Origin: a virus | IMG/VR virus record: IMGVR_UViG_3300037961_006825 | Span: 10,205-74,204 of that record | Reading direction: 5' to 3' (one strand) | Length of the DNA: 64,000 nucleotides | Part shown: positions 10,167 to 53,254 of the stretch, piece after piece | Position numbering within the stretch: the stretch's first letter is position 1 | Layout of the letters: each line of letters opens with the position of its first letter | Notes under the pieces: generated by a model | What the model saw: the letters and a program-made list of their open reading frames with translations, nothing else | What the model was told of the DNA's origin: nothing | Database searches by the model: none | Made by a program: the position numbers and the translations under genes

Positions 10167-11216
10167 ATGAAAAAAACAATAGTTACAGTTACAGGTATTA
10201 GACCAGACTTTATACGTATGTCAGAAGTTTTTAAAAAACTTGATAAAGATTTTAATCATATATTAGTACACACAGGTCAGCATTATGATAAACTTCTTTC
10301 AGATGTATTTTTTGATGAACTTGATATAAGAAAACCTGATTATAATTTAAAGATTGGAAAACCGGGCGCTGAACATTTTCACCAATCAGCAGATTTATCT
10401 GTTAAATTAATTGAATTACTAAGAAAGATAGGTAATGTAGATTGTGTAGTATTTTTAGGTGATTCAAATTCTGTATGTATAGCTCCTCAACTTAAAAAGG
10501 AAGGTTATAAAATAGCTCATATAGAAGCAGGTATGAGATCATATGATAAAAGAATGCTCGAGGAAGTTAATCGAGTAGTTTGCGATCATTGTAGCGATTT
10601 TCTTTTCGTGTATCATGATAATTATAAAATAAAACTTTTCTATGAAAAAATAAATGAGCATATCTATACAGTGGGGAATACTATTGTTGAAGTTTTGAAA
10701 AAAGTTCATAAAAATAAGAAAAAGAAAACTTCTGATTATATCATTCTTGATATACATAGACCAGAGAATTTTAAATATAGAGATAGACTTATACATATAT
10801 TAGATTTTGCAGATAATTTTAATTTACCGGTAAAGTTTTTAAACTTTAAACGAACTATGCAATATATAAAAGATTTTGAAATAGATATGAGTCTATATAA
10901 AAATATAAAAATTATTGATTTATTATCATATAAAAAATTTATTGATTTGCAGTATAATGCATATTGTATAATTAGTGATTCTGGTACAGCTCAAGAAGAA
11001 CCGGCACTACTTAAAACTCCTGTTATAGTACCTAGAGATTATGCTGAAAGACCTGAATCAGTTGAATATGGATGTTCAATTGAAGTTAATGCTAATAAAA
11101 TTATACAGGTAGAAGCAGCAAAAAGTTTTATTGAAAATTATAACCCTAATATTGAATGGTTAGGAAATGGAAACACTAGTCAATTAATAGTAAATAAATT
11201 AAAAGAAATTTTATGA
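10167..11216 (+). CDS. UDP-N-acetylhexosamine 2-epimerase (WecB/FnlC family)
   Basis: GIRPDFIRMS, HTGQHYD, HIEAGMRS, HRPEN, DSGTAQEE, ERPE. Confidence 0.9.
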   Translation: MKKTIVTVTGIRPDFIRMSEVFKKLDKDFNHILVHTGQHYDKLLSDVFFDELDIRKPDYNLKIGKPGAEHFHQSADLSVKLIELLRKIGNVDCVVFLGDSNSVCIAPQLKKEGYKIAHIEAGMRSYDKRMLEEVNRVVCDHCSDFLFVYHDNYKIKLFYEKINEHIYTVGNTIVEVLKKVHKNKKKKTSDYIILDIHRPENFKYRDRLIHILDFADNFNLPVKFLNFKRTMQYIKDFEIDMSLYKNIKIIDLLSYKKFIDLQYNAYCIISDSGTAQEEPALLKTPVIVPRDYAERPESVEYGCSIEVNANKIIQVEAAKSFIENYNPNIEWLGNGNTSQLIVNKLKEIL

Positions 11217-22874: not shown

Positions 22875-24128
22875 ATGTGTGGTTTTGTTTGTACAAATAA
22901 AGATTTAGAATATAGTAAATCGAATAAAAAAATTAAATCTAGAGGTCCTGATTTTACTAATTCAGTAAAGCTAGATAAGTTTAATATTGTTCATAACCTT
23001 CTTGATATATCAGGATTAAAAATATTACAACCTATTACAAAAGATAATATAACTATTTTCTTTAATGGGGAAATATATGAACCGTATAATGAAGTAGAAA
23101 GTAAAACTATAATTCCTTTATATAAAGAATATGGAGAAAAGTTTATAGAAAAAATAAACGGTGAATATGCTTTAGTAATTATAGATCATTCAAAACAGTT
23201 AATTTTAGCTTATAGTGATATTTTTGCAACTAAACCATTATTTTATTCAGTAAATGGAGATGATATTGGTATTAGCTCTTATAAATCTGAATTAGATATA
23301 TTAAAATTTAAAGAAATAAAAAGAATTAAACCATCCACTTACGTTAAAATAAATTTAAAAAATAATGAATATAGCGAATCTATTCATAGTAATTTCAATT
23401 TAGAAGAAAAAAATAACTCATATGATTCATGTATAGATGCTTTAAGTAATGCATTTAAAATAAGATGTAATAAACCAGCTGGCGTTGGGTTGAGCTCAGG
23501 ACACGATTCAGGTGGCATATTAAAGTGGTCAGTTAATAATAAAAATAAAAATAGTTTCTTTTTTGTAGAAACTGATAATGAAGATTTATCTGTAATGCAA
23601 GAAAGGTATAAAATTTGTGAAAATAATAAACTACCTTTACATTTAATTGATTATAAAAAAAATCTTACTTTAAATGAAATAATGGAACATAAACTTCTTG
23701 AACTAAAAATGGAAGAATATGAATTATTTAAAAATGAAGTTTCAACTACTTTAATATCTAAATTGCTAAGAACTGTAAAAGCTAAAAAATTAAATGTTTT
23801 TATATCCGGTCAAGGTAGTGATGAGATTTTATCTAATTATAAATCAGGACCTTTTGTAAAAAATTTACAAAAACAATTTCCATGGAAAAATTTTTATGAA
23901 GGTGCTAATAGACATTTTATAGATCAATTAGAATATATTGGTGGATGTTATGGTATTGAAACACGCTACCCATATTTAGATAAAAACTTTGTTCAAGAAT
24001 TTTTATGGCTTTCAAAAGAAAAAAAGAATGAAAAATATAAAAACGTTTTATCAGAATATTTAAATGATTTATCAGTTAGTGATATCAAGTATGGTTTTAG
24101 AATAAATAATATTAATGCAAACGTTTGA
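22875..24128 (+). CDS. Asparagine synthase-like glutamine amidotransferase
   Basis: N-terminal MCG, RGPD, FNGEIY, LSSGHDSG, SGQGSDEI, RYPYLD. Confidence 0.88.
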   Translation: MCGFVCTNKDLEYSKSNKKIKSRGPDFTNSVKLDKFNIVHNLLDISGLKILQPITKDNITIFFNGEIYEPYNEVESKTIIPLYKEYGEKFIEKINGEYALVIIDHSKQLILAYSDIFATKPLFYSVNGDDIGISSYKSELDILKFKEIKRIKPSTYVKINLKNNEYSESIHSNFNLEEKNNSYDSCIDALSNAFKIRCNKPAGVGLSSGHDSGGILKWSVNNKNKNSFFFVETDNEDLSVMQERYKICENNKLPLHLIDYKKNLTLNEIMEHKLLELKMEEYELFKNEVSTTLISKLLRTVKAKKLNVFISGQGSDEILSNYKSGPFVKNLQKQFPWKNFYEGANRHFIDQLEYIGGCYGIETRYPYLDKNFVQEFLWLSKEKKNEKYKNVLSEYLNDLSVSDIKYGFRINNINANV

Positions 24129-25945: not shown

Positions 25946-28204
25946 ATGAACGTATTGAAGAGAAATGGTGAACTTGTCCCTTATGATGTTGATAAAATTC
26001 ATAAGTCAGTAAATTGGGCAATAGGTGATATAAAAGGCGTAACTGCATCTGATATAGAGATTAATGCTAATCTTCAGAAAAGAGATGGTATGACGTCGAC
26101 TGAAATACATAACGTATTAATTGATTCTGCAGCTAATCTAATATCTCTAGATAGTCCTAACTATCAATATGTTGCAAGTAGATTACTATCTGCTCAGTTA
26201 CGCAAGGATGTATGGGGTGGAAAAAATCCTCCTAAGCTTTTAGATTTTATTAATAAAAATGTTCATGAATATGATGTATATGATGAAGATATTTTAATGT
26301 TATATACTGATGATGAAGTTAATAAGTTAGATGAATACATTGATCATGAAAGAGATAATAATTTTACATATGCTGGTATGCGTCAATTGTGTGATAAATA
26401 CCTTATTCAAGATAGAGAATCTGGTAAGATATATGAAACTCCTCAGTTTGCATATATGATTATTGCAATGGTATGCTTCGGTAAATATACTAATTCAGTT
26501 AGAATGAATTACGTAAAAAGAGCATATGATTATTTTTCTAAGTTCAAAATTAATATACCAACTCCTCTAATGGCAGGGGTTAGAAGTAAAATTAAGCAAT
26601 ATGCTTCATGTTGTCTTATTGACGTTGATGATACTCTACCTTCTATATTTTCTTCTTCTACTGCTGCAGGGTATGCAACAGGTTCAAGATATGGTATTGG
26701 TTTAAATATGGGTCGTATCAGACCTTTAAACTCTCCAATAAGAAACGGTGAAGTTATTCATACCGGAGTTATTCCTTTTCTTAAGTTAATGGAATCTACG
26801 GTAAAGTCTTGTCATCAGAATGGCATTAGAGGGGGTTCAGCTACTGTTAACTTTCCTTTCTGGCATTATGAAGTCGAAGATATTATGGTATTAAAAAATA
26901 ATTCAGGTACTGATGATAATAGAGTTCGTAAGTTAGACTATTGCATACAGTTCAGTGAATTATTTTATAAACGATTCTTAAAAAATGAAGATATAACTCT
27001 ATTTTCTCCATATGAAGCAAAAGATCTTTATGATGCTTTTGGTCATGAAAACTTTGATGAACTATATGAGCAGTACGAAAGAAAGACTAGTTTAAAATTT
27101 AAAAAGACAGTTAAAGCAAGACAGCTTATGTCTTTATTTGTTAAAGAGAGAGTTGAAACGGGTAGAATATATTACATGAATATAGATCATTGTAACCAAA
27201 GATCAGCTTGGGATACAGATGTTAAAATGACTAATTTATGTGTTGAAGTATTGCATCCAACTAAACCAATGCAACATGTTGATGATAATGATGCTGAAAT
27301 TGGTATTTGTATTTTATCTGCTATTAATGTATTAGAGATACAATCTGATGCAGAAATGGAAAAGGTATGTGATGTGATTGTTAGATTATTAGATCAACTT
27401 ATTGACTATCAAGATTACTTTTTACCAGCTGCTAAAAACTTTACCCGAAACAGAAGATCATTAGGAGTTGGTATAACTAACTTTGCAGCTTATCTTGCTA
27501 AGAACGGTGCAAAATATGATGATGAAGAAGCACCGAACATTGCAAGTAACTTAATGGAAAAAGTTCAATACTATTTGCTTCTATCTTCAAATACTTTAGC
27601 AAAAGAAAAAGGTAAATGTCCTAAGTTTCATGAAACAAAATATAGTAAAGGATGGTTACCTCACGATACATATAAAACTGAATTAGATGAATTTGTAACT
27701 GTTAAACCATATATGGATTGGGAATATTTAAGAGAACAAATTAAAGAGCATGGGTTGAGACATAGTACTGTATCAGCTATTATGCCTTGTGAGAGTTCAT
27801 CTGTCATACAGAGTTCAACTAATGGTATAGAACCAATTAGGAATTATATTACCTATAAGAAATCTAAAGCTCGTACGTTGCCTGTAATTGTACCTAATTA
27901 TCATCATTATAAGAATAAGTATACTTTAGCTTATGATATGGAAGACAATCAAGGTTTAATTAAAGTAGTTGCTGCTTTACAGAAATGGGTTGATATGAGT
28001 ATTAGTGCGAATCTTTATTATAATTATGCTCATTATGAAGGTGGAGCATTGCCTGATGCAAAAGTTATTAAAGAGCTTTTACTATCATATAAGCTTGGTT
28101 GGAGAACTGGATATTATCTCAATACTGATGATGGAGATAAACAAAGTAGTGCTGAAGAAATAAACGAAGAAGAAGGATGCGAATCAGGGGCATGCGCATT
28201 ATAA
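25946..28204 (+). CDS. nrdA: Ribonucleotide reductase class Ia alpha subunit
   Basis: ATP cone (VLKRNG), ETPQ, ASCCL, TNLCVE, CILSA, STNGIEP, YY, C-terminal CESGACAL. Confidence 0.97.
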   Translation: MNVLKRNGELVPYDVDKIHKSVNWAIGDIKGVTASDIEINANLQKRDGMTSTEIHNVLIDSAANLISLDSPNYQYVASRLLSAQLRKDVWGGKNPPKLLDFINKNVHEYDVYDEDILMLYTDDEVNKLDEYIDHERDNNFTYAGMRQLCDKYLIQDRESGKIYETPQFAYMIIAMVCFGKYTNSVRMNYVKRAYDYFSKFKINIPTPLMAGVRSKIKQYASCCLIDVDDTLPSIFSSSTAAGYATGSRYGIGLNMGRIRPLNSPIRNGEVIHTGVIPFLKLMESTVKSCHQNGIRGGSATVNFPFWHYEVEDIMVLKNNSGTDDNRVRKLDYCIQFSELFYKRFLKNEDITLFSPYEAKDLYDAFGHENFDELYEQYERKTSLKFKKTVKARQLMSLFVKERVETGRIYYMNIDHCNQRSAWDTDVKMTNLCVEVLHPTKPMQHVDDNDAEIGICILSAINVLEIQSDAEMEKVCDVIVRLLDQLIDYQDYFLPAAKNFTRNRRSLGVGITNFAAYLAKNGAKYDDEEAPNIASNLMEKVQYYLLLSSNTLAKEKGKCPKFHETKYSKGWLPHDTYKTELDEFVTVKPYMDWEYLREQIKEHGLRHSTVSAIMPCESSSVIQSSTNGIEPIRNYITYKKSKARTLPVIVPNYHHYKNKYTLAYDMEDNQGLIKVVAALQKWVDMSISANLYYNYAHYEGGALPDAKVIKELLLSYKLGWRTGYYLNTDDGDKQSSAEEINEEEGCESGACAL

Positions 28205-28214
28205 ATACTTAAAG

Positions 28215-28445
28215 ATGGCTGATAAAGAAGAGAAACAGCCAGAGAATGTTCCTGGCAAATTCTACGTTGATGAACAATGTATAGATTGCGACATGTGTAG
28301 AGATCATGCCCCGGAGTTTTTTATGCGCAGTGATGATGGAGGTTATTCTTACGTTTATAATCAACCTAAAAATGATAATGAAATCGAATTATGTGAAGAA
28401 GCTTTGCAAGATTGCCCTGTAGAAGCAATAGGAAATGATGGATAA
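28215..28445 (+). CDS. Monocluster ferredoxin
   Basis: CIDCDMC...CPVEAI; own TATAAATA box at 28200-28207. Confidence 0.9.
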   Translation: MADKEEKQPENVPGKFYVDEQCIDCDMCRDHAPEFFMRSDDGGYSYVYNQPKNDNEIELCEEALQDCPVEAIGNDG

Positions 28446-28478
28446 TTTTTTAACTAAAGCTATAATAAATAAAGTAAT

Positions 28479-29540
28479 ATGGAGACTGTATTGAACACAA
28501 AAAATGTAGACACAACTAAACAACCAATGTTTTTAGGAGAAGATCTAGCTCTGCAAAGATATGATAGATTTAAATATCCTAAATTTTTCGATCTATGGAG
28601 AAAGCAAGAGGAATTTCATTGGTTACCAGAAGAAGTTTCATTAACTAAAGATCGTAACGATTATGAGAATTTAACTGAAACTGAGAAATTTATCTTTAAT
28701 AGTAACTTAAGATGGCAAACTATGACTGATAGTATGTTATCAAGAAGTATTCATAATATTAAAAATTATGTATCGAACCCTGAATTAGAAATTTGTATGA
28801 CCACATGGGCTAGATTTGAAACTATTCATAGTTACTCATATACATATTTGTTGCAAAATATTACAAAAGACGCTACTGCTTTTTTTGATAGTATTTTAGA
28901 AGATAAAAATATTGTTACTAGAGCAACTGAAATTAGTTCTGCTTATAATAAACTTTTAGGAGATGATAGTAATGATATTAAACAAAAAATATTCAATGCA
29001 GTATTATCAACTCAAATTACTGAAGGTTTAGCTTTTTACGTTTCATTCGCATGTTCATACTTTTTCGGATATAAAGGTAAAATGGAAGGTAATGCTAAAA
29101 TTATTGGATTAATTGCACGTGATGAAAACTTACATGCTGCTATTACTCAAAATATTATTAAGAACTGGCGTCAAAATGAAGATGAAGGTTTTTCTAAAAT
29201 CTTAAAAGATAATGAACAAAAGGTTTATGATATGTATGGGTTAGCTGTAGAGAATGAAAAGAAATGGGCTGAATATTTATTTTCACAAGGTTCATTATTA
29301 GGTCTAAATGCAGATATGCTAAACGGTTACATTGAATGGTTAGCTAATAATAGACTTAAATCTTTAGGATATGATAAAATATTCGATGCACCTACCAATC
29401 CGATCGGCGGTTGGTTAAATAGTTTTTCAGATAGTTCTAAAGTTCAAGTAGCACCGCAAGAAACTGAAATAAGTTCTTATAAGATAGGTGCGAGAGATAC
29501 TGAAATAAGTGAATCAGAATTTGAAGATTTTGATCTATAA
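28479..29540 (+). CDS. nrdB: Ribonucleotide reductase class Ia beta subunit
   Basis: WLPEEVSL, DS, ETIHSYSY, EG-x-x-FYVSFA, RDENLH, APQETEISSY. Confidence 0.97.
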   Translation: METVLNTKNVDTTKQPMFLGEDLALQRYDRFKYPKFFDLWRKQEEFHWLPEEVSLTKDRNDYENLTETEKFIFNSNLRWQTMTDSMLSRSIHNIKNYVSNPELEICMTTWARFETIHSYSYTYLLQNITKDATAFFDSILEDKNIVTRATEISSAYNKLLGDDSNDIKQKIFNAVLSTQITEGLAFYVSFACSYFFGYKGKMEGNAKIIGLIARDENLHAAITQNIIKNWRQNEDEGFSKILKDNEQKVYDMYGLAVENEKKWAEYLFSQGSLLGLNADMLNGYIEWLANNRLKSLGYDKIFDAPTNPIGGWLNSFSDSSKVQVAPQETEISSYKIGARDTEISESEFEDFDL

Positions 29541-35770: not shown

Positions 35771-35798
35771 TTGATAATTATGTTTTATATACTATAAT
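35771..35798 (+). promoter_or_regulatory. Sigma70-like promoter of the TGT-kinase-QueF operon
   Basis: TTGATA-16 nt-TATAAT, 6 nt before ATG 35805. Confidence 0.65.
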
Positions 35799-35804
35799 TA
35801 TAGT

Positions 35805-36587
35805 ATGTTAGTATCTCATGAAAGCCCTATAAGTATGCTCGAGAAATCGAGAGATTATAATGATTATGATTATGCTTTAGTCCATCTCTTTGAGTCTCAT
35901 CCAAAGTATTATGATTTCTTTAAAGAATCATTATTAATGGATAGAGATGTATTATTAGATAATAGTATATTTGAGTTAGGTGAAGCATTTGATCATAAGA
36001 AATTTGCTAAGTATGTTAAAGAATTAAAACCTACTTATTATATAGTACCTGATGTATTAGAAAATGGTTATGAAACTATTAAACATTATATTGAGTTTTG
36101 TTCAGAATATACTGATTTACCTGGTAGTAAAATAGGTGTAGTTCAAGGTAAAACGTATGATGAGTTAGTTGATTGTTATCGCTTTATGGAGCAAAATGCT
36201 GATTATATTGCTATTAGTTTTGATTATAGTTATTATGTTACTACTGGGTTTGGTAAAACTAAACTTGAAAGATGGTGTAATGGTAGGCAAAGATTTATAA
36301 AGCATCTAAAAGATGACGGTGTATGGAATTGTCATAAACCTCATCATTTGTTAGGTTGTTCATTAGCAAGAGAGTTTAAAGCTTATGTAGGAGATAACTC
36401 TATAAGATCTGTTGATACATCTAATCCTATAGTTGCAGGTATTAAGGAACTAAGATATAATAGTGATTTAGGATTGAATGATAAACCTTCTATAAAATTA
36501 GCAGATTTAATTGATACAAAAGTTAATGCAAGTCAAGTAGAAGATATAATGTATAACGTAGGAAAATTTAAAAATATAGTTACATGA
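35805..36587 (+). CDS. TGT/DpdA-like guanine transglycosylase-fold protein
   Basis: LLDNS, VPDV, GVVQG, HLLG, SVDTS echo TGT-barrel motifs; adjacent to queF. Confidence 0.7.
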   Translation: MLVSHESPISMLEKSRDYNDYDYALVHLFESHPKYYDFFKESLLMDRDVLLDNSIFELGEAFDHKKFAKYVKELKPTYYIVPDVLENGYETIKHYIEFCSEYTDLPGSKIGVVQGKTYDELVDCYRFMEQNADYIAISFDYSYYVTTGFGKTKLERWCNGRQRFIKHLKDDGVWNCHKPHHLLGCSLAREFKAYVGDNSIRSVDTSNPIVAGIKELRYNSDLGLNDKPSIKLADLIDTKVNASQVEDIMYNVGKFKNIVT

Positions 36588-37138
36588 TAATTACTTTTAC
36601 AGGAGCTCAAAGTACTGGTAAATCTACTTTACTAGATAAATGTACGTATGATGGTAGGTTTAATTGCTATAGCTTCGTACCTGAAATAACTAGAAAGTTA
36701 AAGAAAAAATATAACTTAACTATAAATGAAAATGGTGATGAATATACTCAATTATTTTGTATTAATAGTCATTTAGAAAATTATCTAAGTCATAAAAATA
36801 GTAAGGTGGTATTAGATAGATGTGCATTAGATGCTTTAGTTTATACGACTTATCAATATCATACTGGTAAAGTTAATGAATGGGTAATGGATTATGCAAC
36901 TAATTTATTTGAGAGTTTAAAAGATAAATATGATATTATTTTTTATACTGAACCTGATATTGATTTAGTTGATGACGGTGAAAGAAGTAGTAGTAATGAG
37001 TTTAGAGATACTATTGTTAAACTATTTGAGGAAGCAATAGATCATTATAATTTAAAAGTAGTACGATTAAAAGGTACTGTTGAAGAACGTATGGTAACAA
37101 TATATAAAACTTTAGATAAAATTAATTATGGCAAATAA
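36584..37138 (+). CDS. P-loop nucleotide kinase-like (AAA_28/dNMP kinase type)
   Basis: GAQSTGKST, LDRCALD, DDGER. Confidence 0.78.
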   Translation: MIITFTGAQSTGKSTLLDKCTYDGRFNCYSFVPEITRKLKKKYNLTINENGDEYTQLFCINSHLENYLSHKNSKVVLDRCALDALVYTTYQYHTGKVNEWVMDYATNLFESLKDKYDIIFYTEPDIDLVDDGERSSSNEFRDTIVKLFEEAIDHYNLKVVRLKGTVEERMVTIYKTLDKINYGK

Positions 37139-38057
37139 AACATTAGATAATAGTAGGATAAGTAAGCATTTAGGTCAAACGTCTCAATATAAGAGTCAGT
37201 ATGATCCTGAGTTATTGGTAAGAGAGCCTCGTAGTAATAATCGAGAATATTTGAATATATTTGATGATGATTTACCTTTCGTGGGATCAGATACGTGGAA
37301 TGCATATGAGTGTTCGTTTCTTTTAGATAACGGATGCCCTGTAACTGGGATTGTAAAATGTGTGTATCCTTGTAGTAGTAAGTATATTGTTGAGAGTAAA
37401 AGTATTAAGTTATATTTTAATTCCTTTAATATGACTAAAATAGCTGCTGATAGAGATGTAGCTATTAGTTCTTTTGAAAATACTGCAAGTAAAGATTTAA
37501 GTAAGTTACTAGAGACTGAAGTTAAGGTATCATTTCAAGACGGGGCTCGTGTAAATAATACTTATAATAGTCCTAATGGTGCTTGGGATATAGATCAATA
37601 TATAAACGTAGATCATTTAGAAGATCAAAAAGATTATATTTATAATCAGTATACTGAAGACCCGAGCTTATTAGAAGGAATAACTCGTCAAAGAGATCTA
37701 AAGCAATATTTTTATTCCGGGTTGCTTAAAAGTAACTGTCGTGTAACTTCTCAACCTGATTGGGGTGATGTATTTATATACATTAAATCTAAGTATGCTA
37801 TTGATGCGCATAGCATTAAAAAGTATATTGTATCTTATAGAGATGAGTGTCATTTTCATGAAGAGATCTGCGAATGTTTTTATAAACGTTTAAAAGATGC
37901 ATTTGATCCTTCTGAACTTTTAGTTATGTGTTTATACGCTCGTAGAGGTGGTATTGATATTAACCCTGTAAGAGCGTCGAATCAAGATCTAATTGATGAA
38001 TTTGCTGGTAGTTTAGTCGATCCAGATGTAGTTCATATTAAAACTTCTAAACAATAA
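37128..38057 (+). CDS. queF: 7-cyano-7-deazaguanine reductase QueF (long, bimodular type)
   Basis: DTWNAYE, VESKSIKLYFNSF, LLKSNCRVTSQPDWG, FHEEICE, YARRGGIDINP. Confidence 0.93.
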   Translation: MANKTLDNSRISKHLGQTSQYKSQYDPELLVREPRSNNREYLNIFDDDLPFVGSDTWNAYECSFLLDNGCPVTGIVKCVYPCSSKYIVESKSIKLYFNSFNMTKIAADRDVAISSFENTASKDLSKLLETEVKVSFQDGARVNNTYNSPNGAWDIDQYINVDHLEDQKDYIYNQYTEDPSLLEGITRQRDLKQYFYSGLLKSNCRVTSQPDWGDVFIYIKSKYAIDAHSIKKYIVSYRDECHFHEEICECFYKRLKDAFDPSELLVMCLYARRGGIDINPVRASNQDLIDEFAGSLVDPDVVHIKTSKQ

Positions 38058-38062
38058 TATAT

Positions 38063-38239
38063 ATGTCAAAAAAAATATTGCAAGGCCGTACACAATATAA
38101 AGGTGTTGGTAAATTATATGGTCGTAGTTCTGGAGAAATGGTCTTCAACGAACATGTAGGTTACAAAGTAACACCTAAGCTTAACCAAGCTATCAATAAA
38201 AATTTGCAAAAAAAGAGCCTCAACTCTAAAAAGAGCTGA
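38063..38239 (+). CDS. Small basic hypothetical protein (58 aa), unannotated
   Basis: MSKKILQGRTQYKGVGKLYGRSSGEMVFNEHVGYKV...; starts 5 nt after the queF stop. Confidence 0.5.
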   Translation: MSKKILQGRTQYKGVGKLYGRSSGEMVFNEHVGYKVTPKLNQAINKNLQKKSLNSKKS

Positions 38240-38267: not shown

Positions 38268-39797
38268 TTATGCAAAATACACGCTGTTTGTACCAGGTGT
38301 GAATGCAGATCCGAGTCCTGTACAAATGATTACGTGGTAGTAAAGGTTAGCACCAAAGATATTATCAACGACGCCATAACGAGTAAGCAAGCCTACTCTA
38401 GGAGCGAAGTCGTTAGGACCAATTGTGCGTTGTACCATTACAGGAATGTAAGGACAGTAGATAATACCAGTGTCATAGAACTCAGGTCCTTTGTATCCTA
38501 ATAGGATATATTCAGGAGCTGTAGAAGCTGCGGCACTGAAATCATTACCAATTGTTTGTCCTTCTGTTCTTGTATCACGATAAACATTGAAACGTCCACC
38601 AAGGTTACCGATCTTAGCAACACCTACTGGCTGTGTATTAACGTTACCTTGAACTGGTACCCACTGGAATTCAGGGAGCATTTCCAAGATAGCGCAAACA
38701 CGTGGAGTAGCAACTAAGAAGTTAGCAGCACCACGTCTGTTTCTAACAGCAATACGGTTAGCTTCGACGATTACTCTTTGATATAAGTCTCTGTTACGCT
38801 CAACAATCCAACGTCCGTCAGCAGAAGCAGGTGACCAGATAGAATATCCAGTACCTTTTTGTGCATTAAGAGCAGTTTGAATCATACGGATCAACATTTC
38901 ACGATCGATCTCAGCCTGAATTTCATATGACATAGCATTTGTTAACTCAGTATCGATATCGATTCCGTTCATGTTTTTAAGATCCTGTTCTAATTCAACT
39001 GACCATCTAGCGCCTAAGCGTCTAGTACCGGCTTCTACAGCAGTCTTCTCAAACGAAACTTCCATTGTAGGAATTTTGTTTGTGATTTCGAAGTTCTTTA
39101 GAAGTGCTGCAACACCCTTATCGTTAGCATCGATTGTAAAATCATCGTTACCAGATAAGTATGTTGAAGTTTGTCCGGTATAACCAGTTACTAGCTCTTG
39201 GAAACCAGCTTCTTTAGCAGAAGCAGCGGTTGCAGCAGTGCTATCAGCACCGGAACCAGGGTTACCAGAAATTTGATCGCTATCGAAGCCATCAACACCA
39301 GTTCCACCTAAAGTTTCACCAGAGTAACGGTAACGTAATGCGAACGCTAGACCAACTGGTCCGGCCATTGGTTGAACACCAACAATCTCATTTGTAATTA
39401 ACTCGGGAAAAGTACGTCTAATCATTGGAATCAAGATCTTAGGCAGACGAGCGTCACCAGAAGCGTAAGTATCTTCGCCAGGTGTACCACCGACTGTTGC
39501 TCGATTGTTCCAAGAAGTTGCAGTATCACCTAAAGAACCAGTTTGTGAACCAGCACCATGTCCAGCTGCTACAGATGAACCACCAATATTACTCACAGGA
39601 GTATAGTTAGGTCCAGCTTCTTTCAAACACCATGTCTCTTGGTTTTCCAAAAGCATAGCAGTGTTTAAACGTGTATGGCTGTCTTCGATAGGAGCAACAC
39701 TCTTTGAAGTGTAATCTAATACAGGAGCCCATTTCTCTAATAGTTGAGAAGCTCTTGATTCGTCAATATATGCCTGTGTAGGTCTAATTGAATTCAT
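38268..39797 (-). CDS. gp23: Major capsid protein, T4 gp23 family
   Basis: LLEKWAPVL, LLENQE, GVQPM-x-GP-x-GL, ELEQDLK, EIDRE, YCPYIP, PRVGLLTRYG. Confidence 0.97.
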   Translation of the reverse strand: MNSIRPTQAYIDESRASQLLEKWAPVLDYTSKSVAPIEDSHTRLNTAMLLENQETWCLKEAGPNYTPVSNIGGSSVAAGHGAGSQTGSLGDTATSWNNRATVGGTPGEDTYASGDARLPKILIPMIRRTFPELITNEIVGVQPMAGPVGLAFALRYRYSGETLGGTGVDGFDSDQISGNPGSGADSTAATAASAKEAGFQELVTGYTGQTSTYLSGNDDFTIDANDKGVAALLKNFEITNKIPTMEVSFEKTAVEAGTRRLGARWSVELEQDLKNMNGIDIDTELTNAMSYEIQAEIDREMLIRMIQTALNAQKGTGYSIWSPASADGRWIVERNRDLYQRVIVEANRIAVRNRRGAANFLVATPRVCAILEMLPEFQWVPVQGNVNTQPVGVAKIGNLGGRFNVYRDTRTEGQTIGNDFSAAASTAPEYILLGYKGPEFYDTGIIYCPYIPVMVQRTIGPNDFAPRVGLLTRYGVVDNIFGANLYYHVIICTGLGSAFTPGTNSVYFA

Positions 39798-52753: not shown

Positions 52754-53254
52754 TTATTTATCCCAAGGAAACACCATCCAGTTGTCTGAATGAAAACTAT
52801 TTCCATAAAATCCATCATTGAATTTTGAATTATAACGTTTAACAAGAGCACAATAACGTATATCTTTTATTTTTTTAAGATGATTATTAAGATAGTAATT
52901 AATAGCTTTAAATGTATCACCTGAGTCATTAATATCATCTACTACTAATACTCTACCCCATACAGTCGGTTTTTGTATCATAGCAAATTTTTCTGTATCA
53001 GATTTAAATCCCATATCAGATAAATTTTTAATTAATTGTTTAAGTGTCTTGTTATCTTTATGCCTAGTATTAATACCTAAATTTTGTAAATTATAAACTC
53101 CTAATTTATAACTTAAGATAGTAGCAGGTATTAACCCACCTCTACCTAATCCTATTATAGTATCGAACTTAAAATCGTGCCAGCTTATTTCATCAATTAT
53201 ACGCTCAATTAAAAAATCTACATCTGACCATTTAAGTATAGTATTATTAAGCAT
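52754..53254 (-). CDS. Purine phosphoribosyltransferase (Gpt-like)
   Basis: GLGRGGLIPA, LVVDDINDSGDT, WMVFPW. Confidence 0.88.
   Translation of the reverse strand: MLNNTILKWSDVDFLIERIIDEISWHDFKFDTIIGLGRGGLIPATILSYKLGVYNLQNLGINTRHKDNKTLKQLIKNLSDMGFKSDTEKFAMIQKPTVWGRVLVVDDINDSGDTFKAINYYLNNHLKKIKDIRYCALVKRYNSKFNDGFYGNSFHSDNWMVFPWDK

Follow-up and report, generated by a model that had tools for sequence, protein, structure and literature searches.

Among 7-deazaguanine systems, only those built around the enzyme DpdA3 are known to replace guanine completely. The DpdA3 subfamily was delineated by Cui, Hutinet et al. (2023), with gp056 of Campylobacter phage CP220, immuto_65 of Flavobacterium phage immuto and CGPG_00065 of Cellulophaga phage phiST as founding members, and the final base of CP220 is the amide ADG (PMC10516641). 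Post-replicative insertion was proposed in the 2023 paper for all DpdA subfamilies, and the kinase with which the present study is largely concerned is not mentioned there (PMC10516641).

Here, a window of 64,000 nucleotides (positions 10,205 to 74,204 of IMG/VR record IMGVR_UViG_3300037961_006825) was analysed, in which a DpdA3 gene is directly followed by genes for a P-loop kinase and for QueF. These three genes very probably form the last module of a 7-deazaguanine system of the DpdA3 type that would put dPreQ1, unformylated, in the place of dG. The replacement is probably complete, by analogy with the three DpdA3 phages of the literature. In the predicted pathway FolE2, QueD and QueE, together with a QueC expected outside the sequenced fragment, would convert GTP into preQ0, QueF would reduce preQ0 to preQ1, DpdA3 would swap guanine for preQ1 on a deoxyribose, and the phage genome would end with dPreQ1 in place of dG.

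Organization of the locus

The source is an uncultured, marine, T4-like phage, represented by a 34%-complete fragment. The phage was detected among the assembled contigs of public marine metagenome runs of 2014 and 2019. RNA contigs in public runs comprised the capsid gene only; in such assembled contigs the absence of cassette coverage is uninformative. The cassette extends from 35805 to 38057 among structural genes, and is listed here with the promoter candidate in front of it:

35771-35798, + strand: sigma-70-like promoter candidate (TTGATA-16-TATAAT), the best match in the region (11/12)
35805-36587, + strand: DpdA3-subfamily TGT-fold base-exchange enzyme, 260 aa (phrog_19058, homology, AF2 model)
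36584-37138, + strand: AAA_28 P-loop kinase, 184 aa (PF13521, AF2 fold, synteny censuses)
37128-38057, + strand: bimodular QueF (preQ0 to preQ1 reductase), 309 aa (QueF_N and QueF Pfam families, motifs)

The three coupled genes described in the initial annotation were recovered at exactly the same positions, all on the + strand and overlapping, the first two by 4 nt (ATGA) and the last two by 11 nt. The single promoter placed in front of them fared less well. The 11/12 match does end 6 nt before the first ATG, but promoter-like sites are no commoner in the region than in shuffled sequence (18 observed, 18.3 expected), and for this reason its function is regarded as plausible only. A small ORF located after QueF (38063-38239) was considered as a cassette gene and discarded, as it has no Pfam match and about 150 related loci contain no homologue of it.

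The base-exchange enzyme

The first gene is a member of the DpdA3 subfamily, as judged from its homology to the founding members: in tblastn searches it is 50% identical to CP220 gp056 over 99% of its length, 49% identical to immuto_65 and 27% identical to phiST CGPG_00065, and with the sequence alignment included the values for CP220 gp056 and immuto_65 span 49-51%. These values bear out the DpdA-like nature that had been suggested earlier, and agree with the PHROG matches (phrog_19058, 6e-69; phrog_20335, 2e-10). No Pfam or NCBIfam family was matched at E <= 0.1, the TGT profile PF01702 included, and when the family profile was compared with PDB sequences the best match was DpdA (7UI4), with an E value of only 0.22. 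The AF2 model (pLDDT 97.8) is more informative, since only TGT, ArcTGT and DpdA structures occupy the top of the structure lists (Foldseek E 6e-8; VIA Z 16.9-17.7, about 226-231 of 260 residues, rmsd about 3 A). On the strength of this model the protein is a minimal TGT-type TIM barrel, as the initial annotation had it.

Nine residues are invariant across 127 relatives (D52, E57, D83, R161, H181, L183, G184, D204 and P208). The HLLG..SxDTS segment aligns, weakly, with Leu236..Asp256 of DpdA, which would match L183 to Leu236 and D204 to the nucleophile Asp256, and the spacing of D52...F56 is the same as that of Asp95...Phe99 in DpdA, a motif argument and not a structural superposition. The predicted roles are nucleophile for D204, acid/base for D52 and base binding for D83. 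This mapping rests on the weak DpdA alignment and the motif spacing, because, when the family profile was compared by hhalign with one TGT sequence, that of E. coli, only a partial alignment of 7% probability resulted.

The absence of an obvious Zn-binding cysteine cluster, also noticed earlier, was confirmed: neither a CXCXXC motif nor the Zn site CXCX2CX22H occurs in the protein, which ends at residue 260, short of the position that this site takes in DpdA and TGT. Of its five cysteines, C124 and C185 alone are conserved when the three phages are aligned, and across the 127 relatives C124 alone is conserved at 90%. All DpdA-specific insertions are absent as well. Both features, the Zn site and the insertions, are reportedly conserved within the DpdA family (PMC10164549).

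The DpdA3 family is very large, with 4139 matches in 90% clusters and, at 50% identity, 1580 representatives. It is often met in T4-like phages of marine and fresh waters, is almost wholly unannotated and includes fusions to QueF, DpdN and GNAT. Its members are acidic (median pI 5.5), with seven conserved basic positions. Net charge was given up as an indicator of a DNA substrate, since E. coli TGT is likewise acidic (pI 5.97), and the basic positions do not decide the matter either.

The AAA_28 kinase

The second protein matches PF13521 (AAA_28) over its full length (7e-20, 72.3 bits, cut-off 27), a family that includes the ribosylnicotinamide kinase (RNK) domain of NadR. Its match to the RNK-domain region of TIGR01526 (4e-10, 39.4 bits) lies below the cut-off of 341, and the protein is related to NadR RNK in fold and family, yet is no orthologue of the NR kinase. 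Its AF2 model (pLDDT 90.4) comes closest to NadR RNK domains (Z 17.4-18.7), followed by dCK/dGK/dAK (Z about 16-16.7) and thymidylate kinase (Z about 15.5-16), while a search of its sequence against the PDB gave nothing significant. “Thymidylate kinase” is the name that its orthologues carry in RefSeq and PHROGs, and for this protein it is a PHROG label only (phrog_2107); Thymidylate_kin was not among its Pfam or NCBIfam matches at E <= 0.1. By sequence and modelled fold the protein therefore appears closest to nucleoside 5′-kinases and is not clearly an NMP kinase, although the Z gaps are small and an NMP-kinase activity is possible. As it resembles a nucleoside kinase, additional kinases would have to take its product to the triphosphate. 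The kinase family comprises single-domain proteins of 160-210 aa, and neither a DNA-binding domain nor any likeness to the ParB-like DpdB was found in the kinase.

QueF and the precursor pathway

QueF matches both of its Pfam families above cut-off (QueF_N, PF14819, 3e-33, 114.9 bits; QueF, PF14489, 1e-21, 76.9 bits). Against TIGR03138 it scores 246.1 bits, under the cut-off of 293.45, with residues 12-290 covering positions 5-267 of the 275 in the profile. It is a divergent, yet full-length QueF with intact motifs. The family is defined by the motif E(S/L)K(S/A)hK(L/Y)(Y/F/W) and a catalytic Cys, and the present protein has ESKSIKLY at 89-96, Cys204 within CRVTSQPDW and HFHE at 242-245, in agreement with the earlier observation that the catalytic motifs are intact.

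The initial annotation had advised a search for folE, queD, queE and queC elsewhere in the genome. FolE2 (2e-73), QueD and QueE (phrog_2076, 2e-43) are encoded upstream on the same contig, whereas QueC was not found on the 34%-complete fragment. QueC and QueE are both present in 5/5 relatives checked, and synteny with the closest relative would place QueC about 43 kb upstream of QueE, beyond the start of the contig.

Because the cassette has no DpdN, the predicted base is unformylated dPreQ1. The earlier suggestion that the preQ1 amine could be decorated further found no support in this phage: DpdN and GNAT, which occur in sister lineages, are missing from it. The SpeD (two) and SpeE (one) genes beside QueE were considered as decorators of the amine and rejected, as they are not conserved with the system, SpeE being present only in the closest relative and missing from three complete genomes.

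Association of the kinase with DpdA3

In 84 of the 86 DpdA3-anchored loci of IMG/VR, the kinase and then QueF follow on the same strand, the two exceptions being loci cut by a contig end, and all 65 kinase-anchored loci contain DpdA3. Relatives in IMG/VR number 573 for DpdA3 and 540 for the kinase, and the cultured phages (50,697 records) with the best kinase matches are exactly the DpdA3 phages. The census loci are kin, and the independent support amounts to about 6-8 lineages or architectures rather than about 150 loci.

The association persists through considerable rearrangement. Besides DpdA3-K-QueF (K, kinase), the orders DpdA3-DpdN-K-QueF, DpdA3-GNAT-K-QueF and DpdA3-K-MazG-QueF-QueC were found, as well as a split form in which an insert of 6 kb separates DpdA3 from DpdN-K-QueF. 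A lineage with a fused enzyme, DpdA3::QueF-DpdN-K-QueD, was obtained in a metagenome scan, while a viral-contig scan with one DpdA3::QueF fusion protein gave no match. In CP220, which makes dADG, the order is HD::AAA_33-DpdA3-K, with no QueF. In phiST an AAA_18 P-loop gene adjoins DpdA3 and the AAA_28 kinase is absent; in phiST-like contigs the AAA_18 domain and DpdL form one protein, which is preceded by a PRTase and a DCD/dUTPase-like gene. As read from these sequences, a non-orthologous kinase replaces AAA_28 in the phiST lineage, and a kinase belongs to the core of the DpdA3 system in every lineage examined, whatever the final base. No DpdA3-kinase fusion was found among the best 150 representatives or in searches for longer forms of either protein, which is weak evidence, since long proteins crowd such searches. 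Pyrophosphatases also adjoin DpdA3 in several systems (PRA-PH in immuto, MazG in phiST and in locus L178, HD in CP220, DCD in locus L102), and the PRTase likewise recurs beside it.

Accessory candidates in the window

Four further features of the window may bear on the system:

4674-5096, + strand: Nudix hydrolase (PF00293, 4.6e-10)
7056-7850, + strand: second AAA_28/dNK-like P-loop protein, 264 aa (PF13521 1e-9, weak PF01712 (dNK), phrog_2107)
25946-29540, + strand: class I RNR (NrdA, ferredoxin, NrdB), context that bears only on the ribonucleotide alternative discussed below
52754-53254, - strand: small XGPRT-like PRTase, candidate accessory (PF00156 2e-10, phrog_8995)

The second P-loop protein possibly provides a second kinase step. 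The PRTase, which is found 3-9 kb from DpdA3 in many loci, is a candidate for the salvage of released guanine or for the ribosylation of a deazaguanine base. Apart from the Nudix hydrolase, no candidate NTP pyrophosphohydrolase is recognisable on the contig; the Nudix hydrolase occurs in 3/5 related genomes, beside QueE in one of them, and in one of the three complete or near-complete genomes of the lineage, and its tie to the system is weak. The contig and four relatives, of which three are complete or near-complete, gave no match to MazG, PRA-PH or HD profiles, and as a consequence no way to exclude dGTP is apparent in this lineage.

Route of base exchange

Two levels at which the base could be exchanged have to be weighed, and sequence alone does not settle the choice. 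Over the published post-replicative editing we favour, with about even confidence, an exchange in the nucleotide pool, which would be made on a free deoxynucleoside or deoxynucleotide and not on DNA. The AAA_28 kinase would phosphorylate the exchange product, a second phage P-loop kinase and the host NDK would complete dPreQ1-TP, and the phage polymerase would incorporate it. DpdA3 would then be the first TGT-fold enzyme to act on a free deoxynucleoside or deoxynucleotide and, together with an obligatory kinase (elsewhere also MazG, HD or DCD), would make a 7-deaza-dGTP analogue pre-replicatively, a proposal to which we assign slightly less than an even chance. If it is true, the outcome would be an all-dPreQ1 genome with a primary amine at every G position.

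In favour of exchange in the pool we count, besides the identity of the parts and the pathway genes, the constancy of the kinase across lineages, rearrangements and final bases, its non-orthologous replacement in phiST, its nucleoside/nucleotide-kinase fold, the pyrophosphatases beside DpdA3, and a DpdA3 devoid of the Zn site and of the insertions found in DNA-acting DpdA. To this are added the literature observations that DpdA3 phages replace G completely, that the ADG nucleoside occurs in the cytoplasm of CP220-infected cells, and that DpdA3 without its neighbours gave no DNA modification in E. coli (PMC10516641). Counted against it are the lack of a DpdA3-kinase fusion, the lack of a dGTP-depletion enzyme in the lineage and the likeness of the kinase to nucleoside kinases, together with the kinship of the census loci and the absence of QueC from the fragment. 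To our knowledge, every characterised TGT-superfamily enzyme works on a polynucleotide, and this also counts against the pool. The only DpdA3 paper, moreover, proposes post-replicative insertion (PMC10516641). The initial annotation had taken the intervening kinase as a sign of exchange at the nucleotide level; its position as a core partner in every lineage, the non-orthologous kinase of the phiST lineage and the recurrent NTP pyrophosphatases support this reading, but the identity of the kinase as an NMP kinase is unclear, as NadR RNK domains and deoxynucleoside kinases rank above thymidylate kinase.

According to the published model, DpdA3 acts as a transglycosylase on replicated DNA, where it swaps guanine for preQ1, which we consider a serious possibility, albeit clearly short of even. 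With a similarly restrained probability, the kinase would assist in an ATP-dependent way, much as DpdB does in the bacterial Dpd system, or would be an ordinary salvage kinase travelling along. The model draws on the homology and fold that DpdA3 shares with DpdA and TGT, on the retained catalytic Asp and on the lack of a recognisable dGTP-depleting enzyme in this lineage, and it has a precedent for an ATP-using partner in bacterial DpdA, which needs the ATPase DpdB to put preQ0 into DNA. The DpdA3 fusions listed above are uninformative on the acceptor substrate. The partner found here is, however, a small single-domain protein whose nearest folds are nucleoside and nucleotide kinases, unlike DpdB, and two unrelated kinase families (AAA_28 and AAA_18) take the same slot. 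The model is further challenged by the MazG, HD and DCD pyrophosphatases and the PRTase that recur in the operons, by a DpdA3 devoid of the Zn site and the insertions conserved in DNA-acting DpdA, and by the same failure of DpdA3 alone to modify E. coli DNA. A sequence-independent 100% replacement by base flipping would also be unprecedented.

A ribonucleotide route, in which the PRTase would join preQ1 or preQ0 to PRPP as in toyocamycin/tubercidin biosynthesis, the kinase and RNR would lead to the deoxynucleoside diphosphate, NDK would give the triphosphate and DpdA3 would only polish residual G in DNA or recycle nucleotides, is judged improbable. It can point to the XGPRT-like PRTase, which recurs near DpdA3 and matches only 14 cultured-phage records, nine of them DpdA3 phages, to NrdA and NrdB in the window, and to the use of 7-deazapurine bases by a PF00156 PRTase in secondary metabolism (bioRxiv 10.64898/2026.04.15.718813). 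Yet no PRTase match was found in Firehammerviruses, in which G is fully replaced, the PRTase of the window lies 15 kb off on the opposite strand and would have a simpler job in returning released guanine to GMP/GTP, the preQ0 precursor, and the strictly conserved DpdA3 would be left without a necessary job. Finally, a queuosine-type modification of host or phage tRNA, suggested by the TGT fold and by QueF and the preQ pathway as classical tRNA-queuosine genes, is highly improbable given a DpdA3 without Zn subdomain and tRNA-binding parts, relatives of about 50% identity in phages with DNA, not tRNA, modified at 100%, and a full de novo pathway out of proportion for a lytic-type phage of about 200 kb.

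If the kinase does mark an exchange in the nucleotide pool, the published post-replicative model would need revising, the TGT superfamily would gain a new reaction type, and an enzymatic path to 7-substituted 7-deaza-dNTPs, useful as reagents, would become available. Even if the mechanism is conventional, the kinase is to be counted as a core component, which may explain why DpdA3 failed reconstitution in E. coli. The form of the system without DpdN predicts genomes with unformylated dPreQ1 at every G, none of which has been demonstrated so far.

Comparison with known systems

The closest described system is that of immuto, in which DpdA3 (49% identical), the “thymidylate kinase” (37%) and a homologous bimodular QueF lie on the same strand in the order DpdA3 ... 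kinase-QueF, and QueD, QueE and the small PRTase are present as well. It differs from the window in a DpdN formyltransferase between DpdA3 and the kinase, in a MazG-like PRA-PH just upstream and in FolE in place of FolE2; in addition, the present cassette is located among structural genes. As DpdN is found in immuto and not in this window, the base predicted here is dPreQ1 and not formyl-dPreQ1. In the Firehammervirus CP220, a dADG phage, an orthologous kinase (40%) directly follows DpdA3 (50-52% identical), and the cassette is likewise wedged among T4-like structural genes, while QueF is missing, an HD::AAA_33 fusion precedes DpdA3 and the small PRTase has no match. The dDG phage phiST is more remote: it shares a distant DpdA3 (27%, phrog_20335), a small P-loop kinase-like gene, MazG, FolE/QueD/QueE and the PRTase, but its kinase is of the AAA_18 family, the decarboxylase DpdL takes the place of QueF and the final base is 7-deazaguanine.

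DpdA3 has the TIM-barrel fold (Z 16.9-17.7 over about 226-231 residues) in common with bacterial DpdA/DpdB (Salmonella Montevideo, 7UI4) and the TGTs, along with the three Asp residues for nucleophile, acid/base and base binding and the Phe/Leu sandwich. The identity is only 10-13%, and DpdA3 is shorter (260 aa versus 370-413 aa). Replacement in the DpdA3 phages of the literature is complete, whereas that by bacterial DpdA ranges from below 0.1 to 30%, and DpdA3 has no ParB-like DpdB partner.

Phage T4 makes its hydroxymethylcytosine with the dCTPase gp56, the dCMP hydroxymethylase gp42 and the dNMP kinase gp1. The proteins are unrelated to those described here, but the logic is analogous, as a pyrophosphatase, an enzyme that alters the base and a kinase together achieve the complete replacement of one base. 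An exchange in the nucleotide pool would parallel this arrangement, in which a base modifier works on the monophosphate between a dNTP pyrophosphatase and a dedicated kinase. In the present lineage no protein takes the part of the pyrophosphatase; across DpdA3 operons, MazG/HD/DCD, DpdA3 and the P-loop kinase correspond to the same three roles as in T4.

Cassette and phage

The phage very probably makes preQ1 and places it for G in its own DNA by means of a DpdA3 system. The cassette of the window comprises three genes:

35805-36587, + strand, DpdA3 (260 aa)
36584-37138, + strand, AAA_28 kinase (184 aa)
37128-38057, + strand, bimodular QueF (309 aa)

They overlap by 4 nt (DpdA3/kinase) and 11 nt (kinase/QueF) and are flanked by minus-strand genes: a 787-aa and a 459-aa ORF, both putatively structural, on one side and the capsid gene on the other. 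A 58-aa ORF 3' of QueF was not counted as a cassette gene, being without homologue in the related loci. While the three coupled genes of the initial annotation stand, its single promoter (TTGATA-16-TATAAT, ending 6 nt 5' of the DpdA3 ATG) can only be called plausible, since such sites are as frequent in this AT-rich region as in shuffled sequence.

The window (bases 10205-74204 of a 74,204-bp IMG/VR viral contig with CheckV completeness of 34%) has a G+C content of ~29%. With a gp23-type capsid protein ~33% identical to cyanomyovirus counterparts, the phage is T4-like, and near-identical DNA was present in marine metagenomes from both 2014 and 2019. Marine metatranscriptomes contained near-identical RNA contigs for the capsid gene (38268-39797), with exact matches in the two 2019 runs of a single study and slightly divergent ones in a 2025 run, so this phage or one closely related to it is transcribed in the sea.

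DpdA3

Pfam and NCBIfam searches with the first protein gave no match, and none of the 120 DpdA3-family matches listed carried a precomputed Pfam domain or functional name. The protein matches phrog_19058 (6e-69). Homologues were found by tblastn in only 25 of 50,697 phage records, with ~50% identity over the full length in Firehammervirus phages (CP220 gp056) and Flavobacterium phage immuto ('DNA guanine transglycosylase'), and 26-28% in the phiST group, a Chryseobacterium phage and Campylobacter phage CC_R7. The DpdA3 subfamily was founded on CP220 gp056, immuto_65 and phiST CGPG_00065 (PMC10516641). The family counts 4139 matches in 90% clusters (1580 representatives at 50% identity); among its proteins, P0274 carries an intein/LAGLIDADG insertion (PF14890, PF03161) and P0148 an unannotated 320-aa N-terminal domain with no Pfam match.

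All 50 Foldseek matches listed for the AlphaFold model (pLDDT 97.8; 127 relatives as alignment input) were tRNA-guanine transglycosylases (E 6e-8 and weaker). VIA-align gave Z scores of 17.7 for archaeosine TGT, 17.1 for bacterial TGT and 16.9 for the DNA preQ0 insertase DpdA (7UI4), covering ~226-231 of 260 residues at ~3 A. Invariant among the 127 relatives are D52, E57, D83, R161, H181, L183, G184, D204 and P208. The family profile found DpdA as its best, weak match among PDB sequences (E 0.22); HLLG...SxDTS of DpdA3 there lies over HLLGI...SIDST of DpdA, which would put L183 on Leu236 (base sandwich) and D204 on Asp256 (nucleophile). The D52-x3-F56 spacing equals that of Asp95...Phe99 in DpdA. 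The DpdA family as a whole is reported to conserve a Zn site, CXCX2CX22H, and four insertions (PMC10164549), and DpdA3 has neither. The compact TGT-like barrel without Zn-binding cysteines described initially was thus confirmed, and sequence and model suggest that transglycosylase fold and chemistry were kept while the family-wide barrel additions were lost.

QueF and the preQ pathway

Both Pfam domains of bimodular QueF are present in the third protein, which scores 246 bits for the bimodular QueF equivalog, under the 293 cut-off; it keeps the QueF motif, Cys204 and HFHE, in agreement with the catalytic motifs first reported as intact. The search for folE, queD, queE and queC yielded FolE2 (PF02649, 2e-73), QueD and QueE (phrog_2076, 2e-43) in the part of the contig upstream of the window. 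QueC was not found anywhere on the contig, even when the QueC of the closest relative was used as query at E 10. Each of the five related genomes examined, including three that are 96-100% complete, encodes both QueC and QueE. The closest relative has its QueC ~43 kb upstream of QueE, a position that would here fall before the contig start.

Outside the window on the same contig, a 565-aa ORF without Pfam or PHROG match lies between FolE2 and QueD (G000:C1:1106-2803, locus L093), and QueE is immediately followed by two genes for S-adenosylmethionine decarboxylase and one for spermidine synthase (G000:C1:5310-6848, L093). These SpeD/SpeE genes were rejected as part of the deazaguanine system because SpeE is common to the closest relative only, and are probably a separate polyamine auxiliary module. 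An AsnB-like glutamine amidotransferase in the window (22875-24128; GATase_7 and Asn_synthase) is not QueC, though of the same PP-loop superfamily.

The kinase and its linkage to DpdA3

The kinase annotated between DpdA3 and QueF matches AAA_28 (72 bits), its only annotated sequence relative being the ribosylnicotinamide-kinase domain of NadR. Nearest to its model (pLDDT 90.4) were NadR RNK domains (Z 17.4-18.7), followed by the deoxynucleoside kinases dCK, dGK and dAK (16-16.7) and thymidylate kinases (15.5-16). Family match and fold ranking thus point to a nucleoside/nucleotide-class kinase acting on small molecules, with a leaning to nucleoside kinases. The P-loop, a D-R-C motif (D nearly invariant) and R134/S135 are among the invariant residues, the last in a low-confidence loop of the model (123-137) where such kinases have their LID. 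The RefSeq/PHROG name 'thymidylate kinase' is backed by no family model. Streptomyces phages of ~131 kb (H65-H100, e.g. Karimac, StarPlatinum) encode distant AAA_28 homologues (25-28% identity) annotated as thymidylate kinase.

Kinase and then QueF follow DpdA3 on the same strand in 84 of 86 DpdA3-anchored IMG/VR loci, both exceptions being interrupted by a contig end, and DpdA3 is present in 65/65 further kinase-anchored loci. Relatives in IMG/VR are similarly numerous (573 for DpdA3, 540 for the kinase). As the loci come from related phages, what gives this linkage its weight is how many distinct arrangements keep the pair.

Gene arrangements around DpdA3 (K, AAA_28 kinase; ::, fusion)
1. 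DpdA3-K-QueF: window
2. DpdA3-DpdN-K-QueF: immuto
3. As 2, with a ~6 kb insert 3' of DpdA3
4. DpdA3-GNAT-K-QueF
5. DpdA3::QueF-DpdN-K-QueD: metagenome contigs
6. DpdA3-K-MazG-QueF-QueC
7. HD::AAA_33-DpdA3-K: CP220; dADG made, no QueF
8. MazG-DpdL-AAA_18-DpdA3: phiST

The phiST P-loop protein, CGPG_00066, is of another family (AAA_18); the 2023 DpdA3 paper, in which the word 'kinase' is absent, termed it unique (PMC10516641). On phiST-like contigs AAA_18 forms a fusion with DpdL, preceded by a PRTase gene and one resembling dCTP deaminase/dUTPase and followed by DpdA3 (L102:4043-6786, L104:2416-6783). The arrangements indicate that the kinase accompanies DpdA3 and not any given tailoring enzyme; another kinase-type protein substitutes where AAA_28 is missing.

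Proteins P0271, P0273 and P0275 (531-568 aa) are in-frame DpdA3::QueF fusions, on contigs with the order DpdA3::QueF-DpdN-kinase-QueD (loci L171-L177), and P0143, P0177 and P0272 are DpdA3::DpdN fusions. An 88-kb metagenome contig carries a compact operon, DpdA3-AAA_28 kinase-MazG (5e-13)-QueF-QueC (L178:6173-9820), with QueE and FolE 3' of it. At L078:10798-11349 (also in L086) a GNAT acetyltransferase gene (PF00583, 22.9 bits) replaces DpdN between DpdA3 and kinase, and P0134 resembles a DpdA3-GNAT fusion (14.4 bits, below the Pfam cut-off). An N-acyl-preQ1 base, to our knowledge so far undescribed in DNA, is predicted from both.

Five lineages have an NTP pyrophosphohydrolase gene adjoining DpdA3: immuto, phiST and L178 (PRA-PH or MazG), CP220 (HD) and L102 (DCD-like). 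None of these kinds was detectable in the window's lineage, where Nudix occurs in just 3/5 genomes. In a 96%-complete relative, a Nudix gene directly beside QueE (G004:C1:71785-72782) might encode a pyrophosphatase for dGTP or dihydroneopterin triphosphate.

Route of base exchange

We favour, with confidence and doubt in equal measure, a route in which DpdA3 would swap the base on a free deoxynucleoside or nucleotide, the product then being phosphorylated. This is suggested by the obligatory, convergently replaced kinase and its fold, by the loss of the Zn site and the insertions that are conserved where DpdA acts on DNA, and by the recurrent pyrophosphatases, which would match the T4 gp56/gp42/gp1 pathway with its logic of pyrophosphatase, base-modifying enzyme and kinase. 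It is also favoured by the complete replacement of G in 3/3 DpdA3 phages analysed and by the free ADG nucleoside reported from infected cells, cited second-hand in PMC10516641. DpdA3 could not be brought to function in E. coli (PMC10516641). Against exchange on free nucleotides count the failure to find any kinase fusion, the lack of a visible dGTP-removing enzyme in the window's lineage, and the fact that a nucleoside kinase alone stops short of the triphosphate. We also know of no TGT-family enzyme acting on a mononucleotide, which counts in the same direction. The initial proposal that the kinase signals exchange at the nucleotide level gains from linkage, arrangements and fold, but is weakened by the leaning to nucleoside kinases.

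The published post-replicative model, with exchange in DNA and the P-loop protein as an ATP-using helper, for which DpdB of bacterial DpdA sets a precedent, is a tentative but serious contender. A ribonucleotide route through PRTase and RNR is improbable; a small XGPRT-like PRTase, a recurrent neighbour of DpdA3, is encoded at 52754-53254, and its matches are confined to 14 phage records, of which nine belong to DpdA3 phages. A tRNA role of the cassette is hardly credible.

The DpdA3 system, in which we favour exchange before replication, is of a known kind, described in 2023 (PMC10516641). With DpdN, DpdM and GNAT genes all missing from the cassette, its predicted end product is dPreQ1, and the window would thus hold a DpdN-less variant of that system, yielding the unformylated base.
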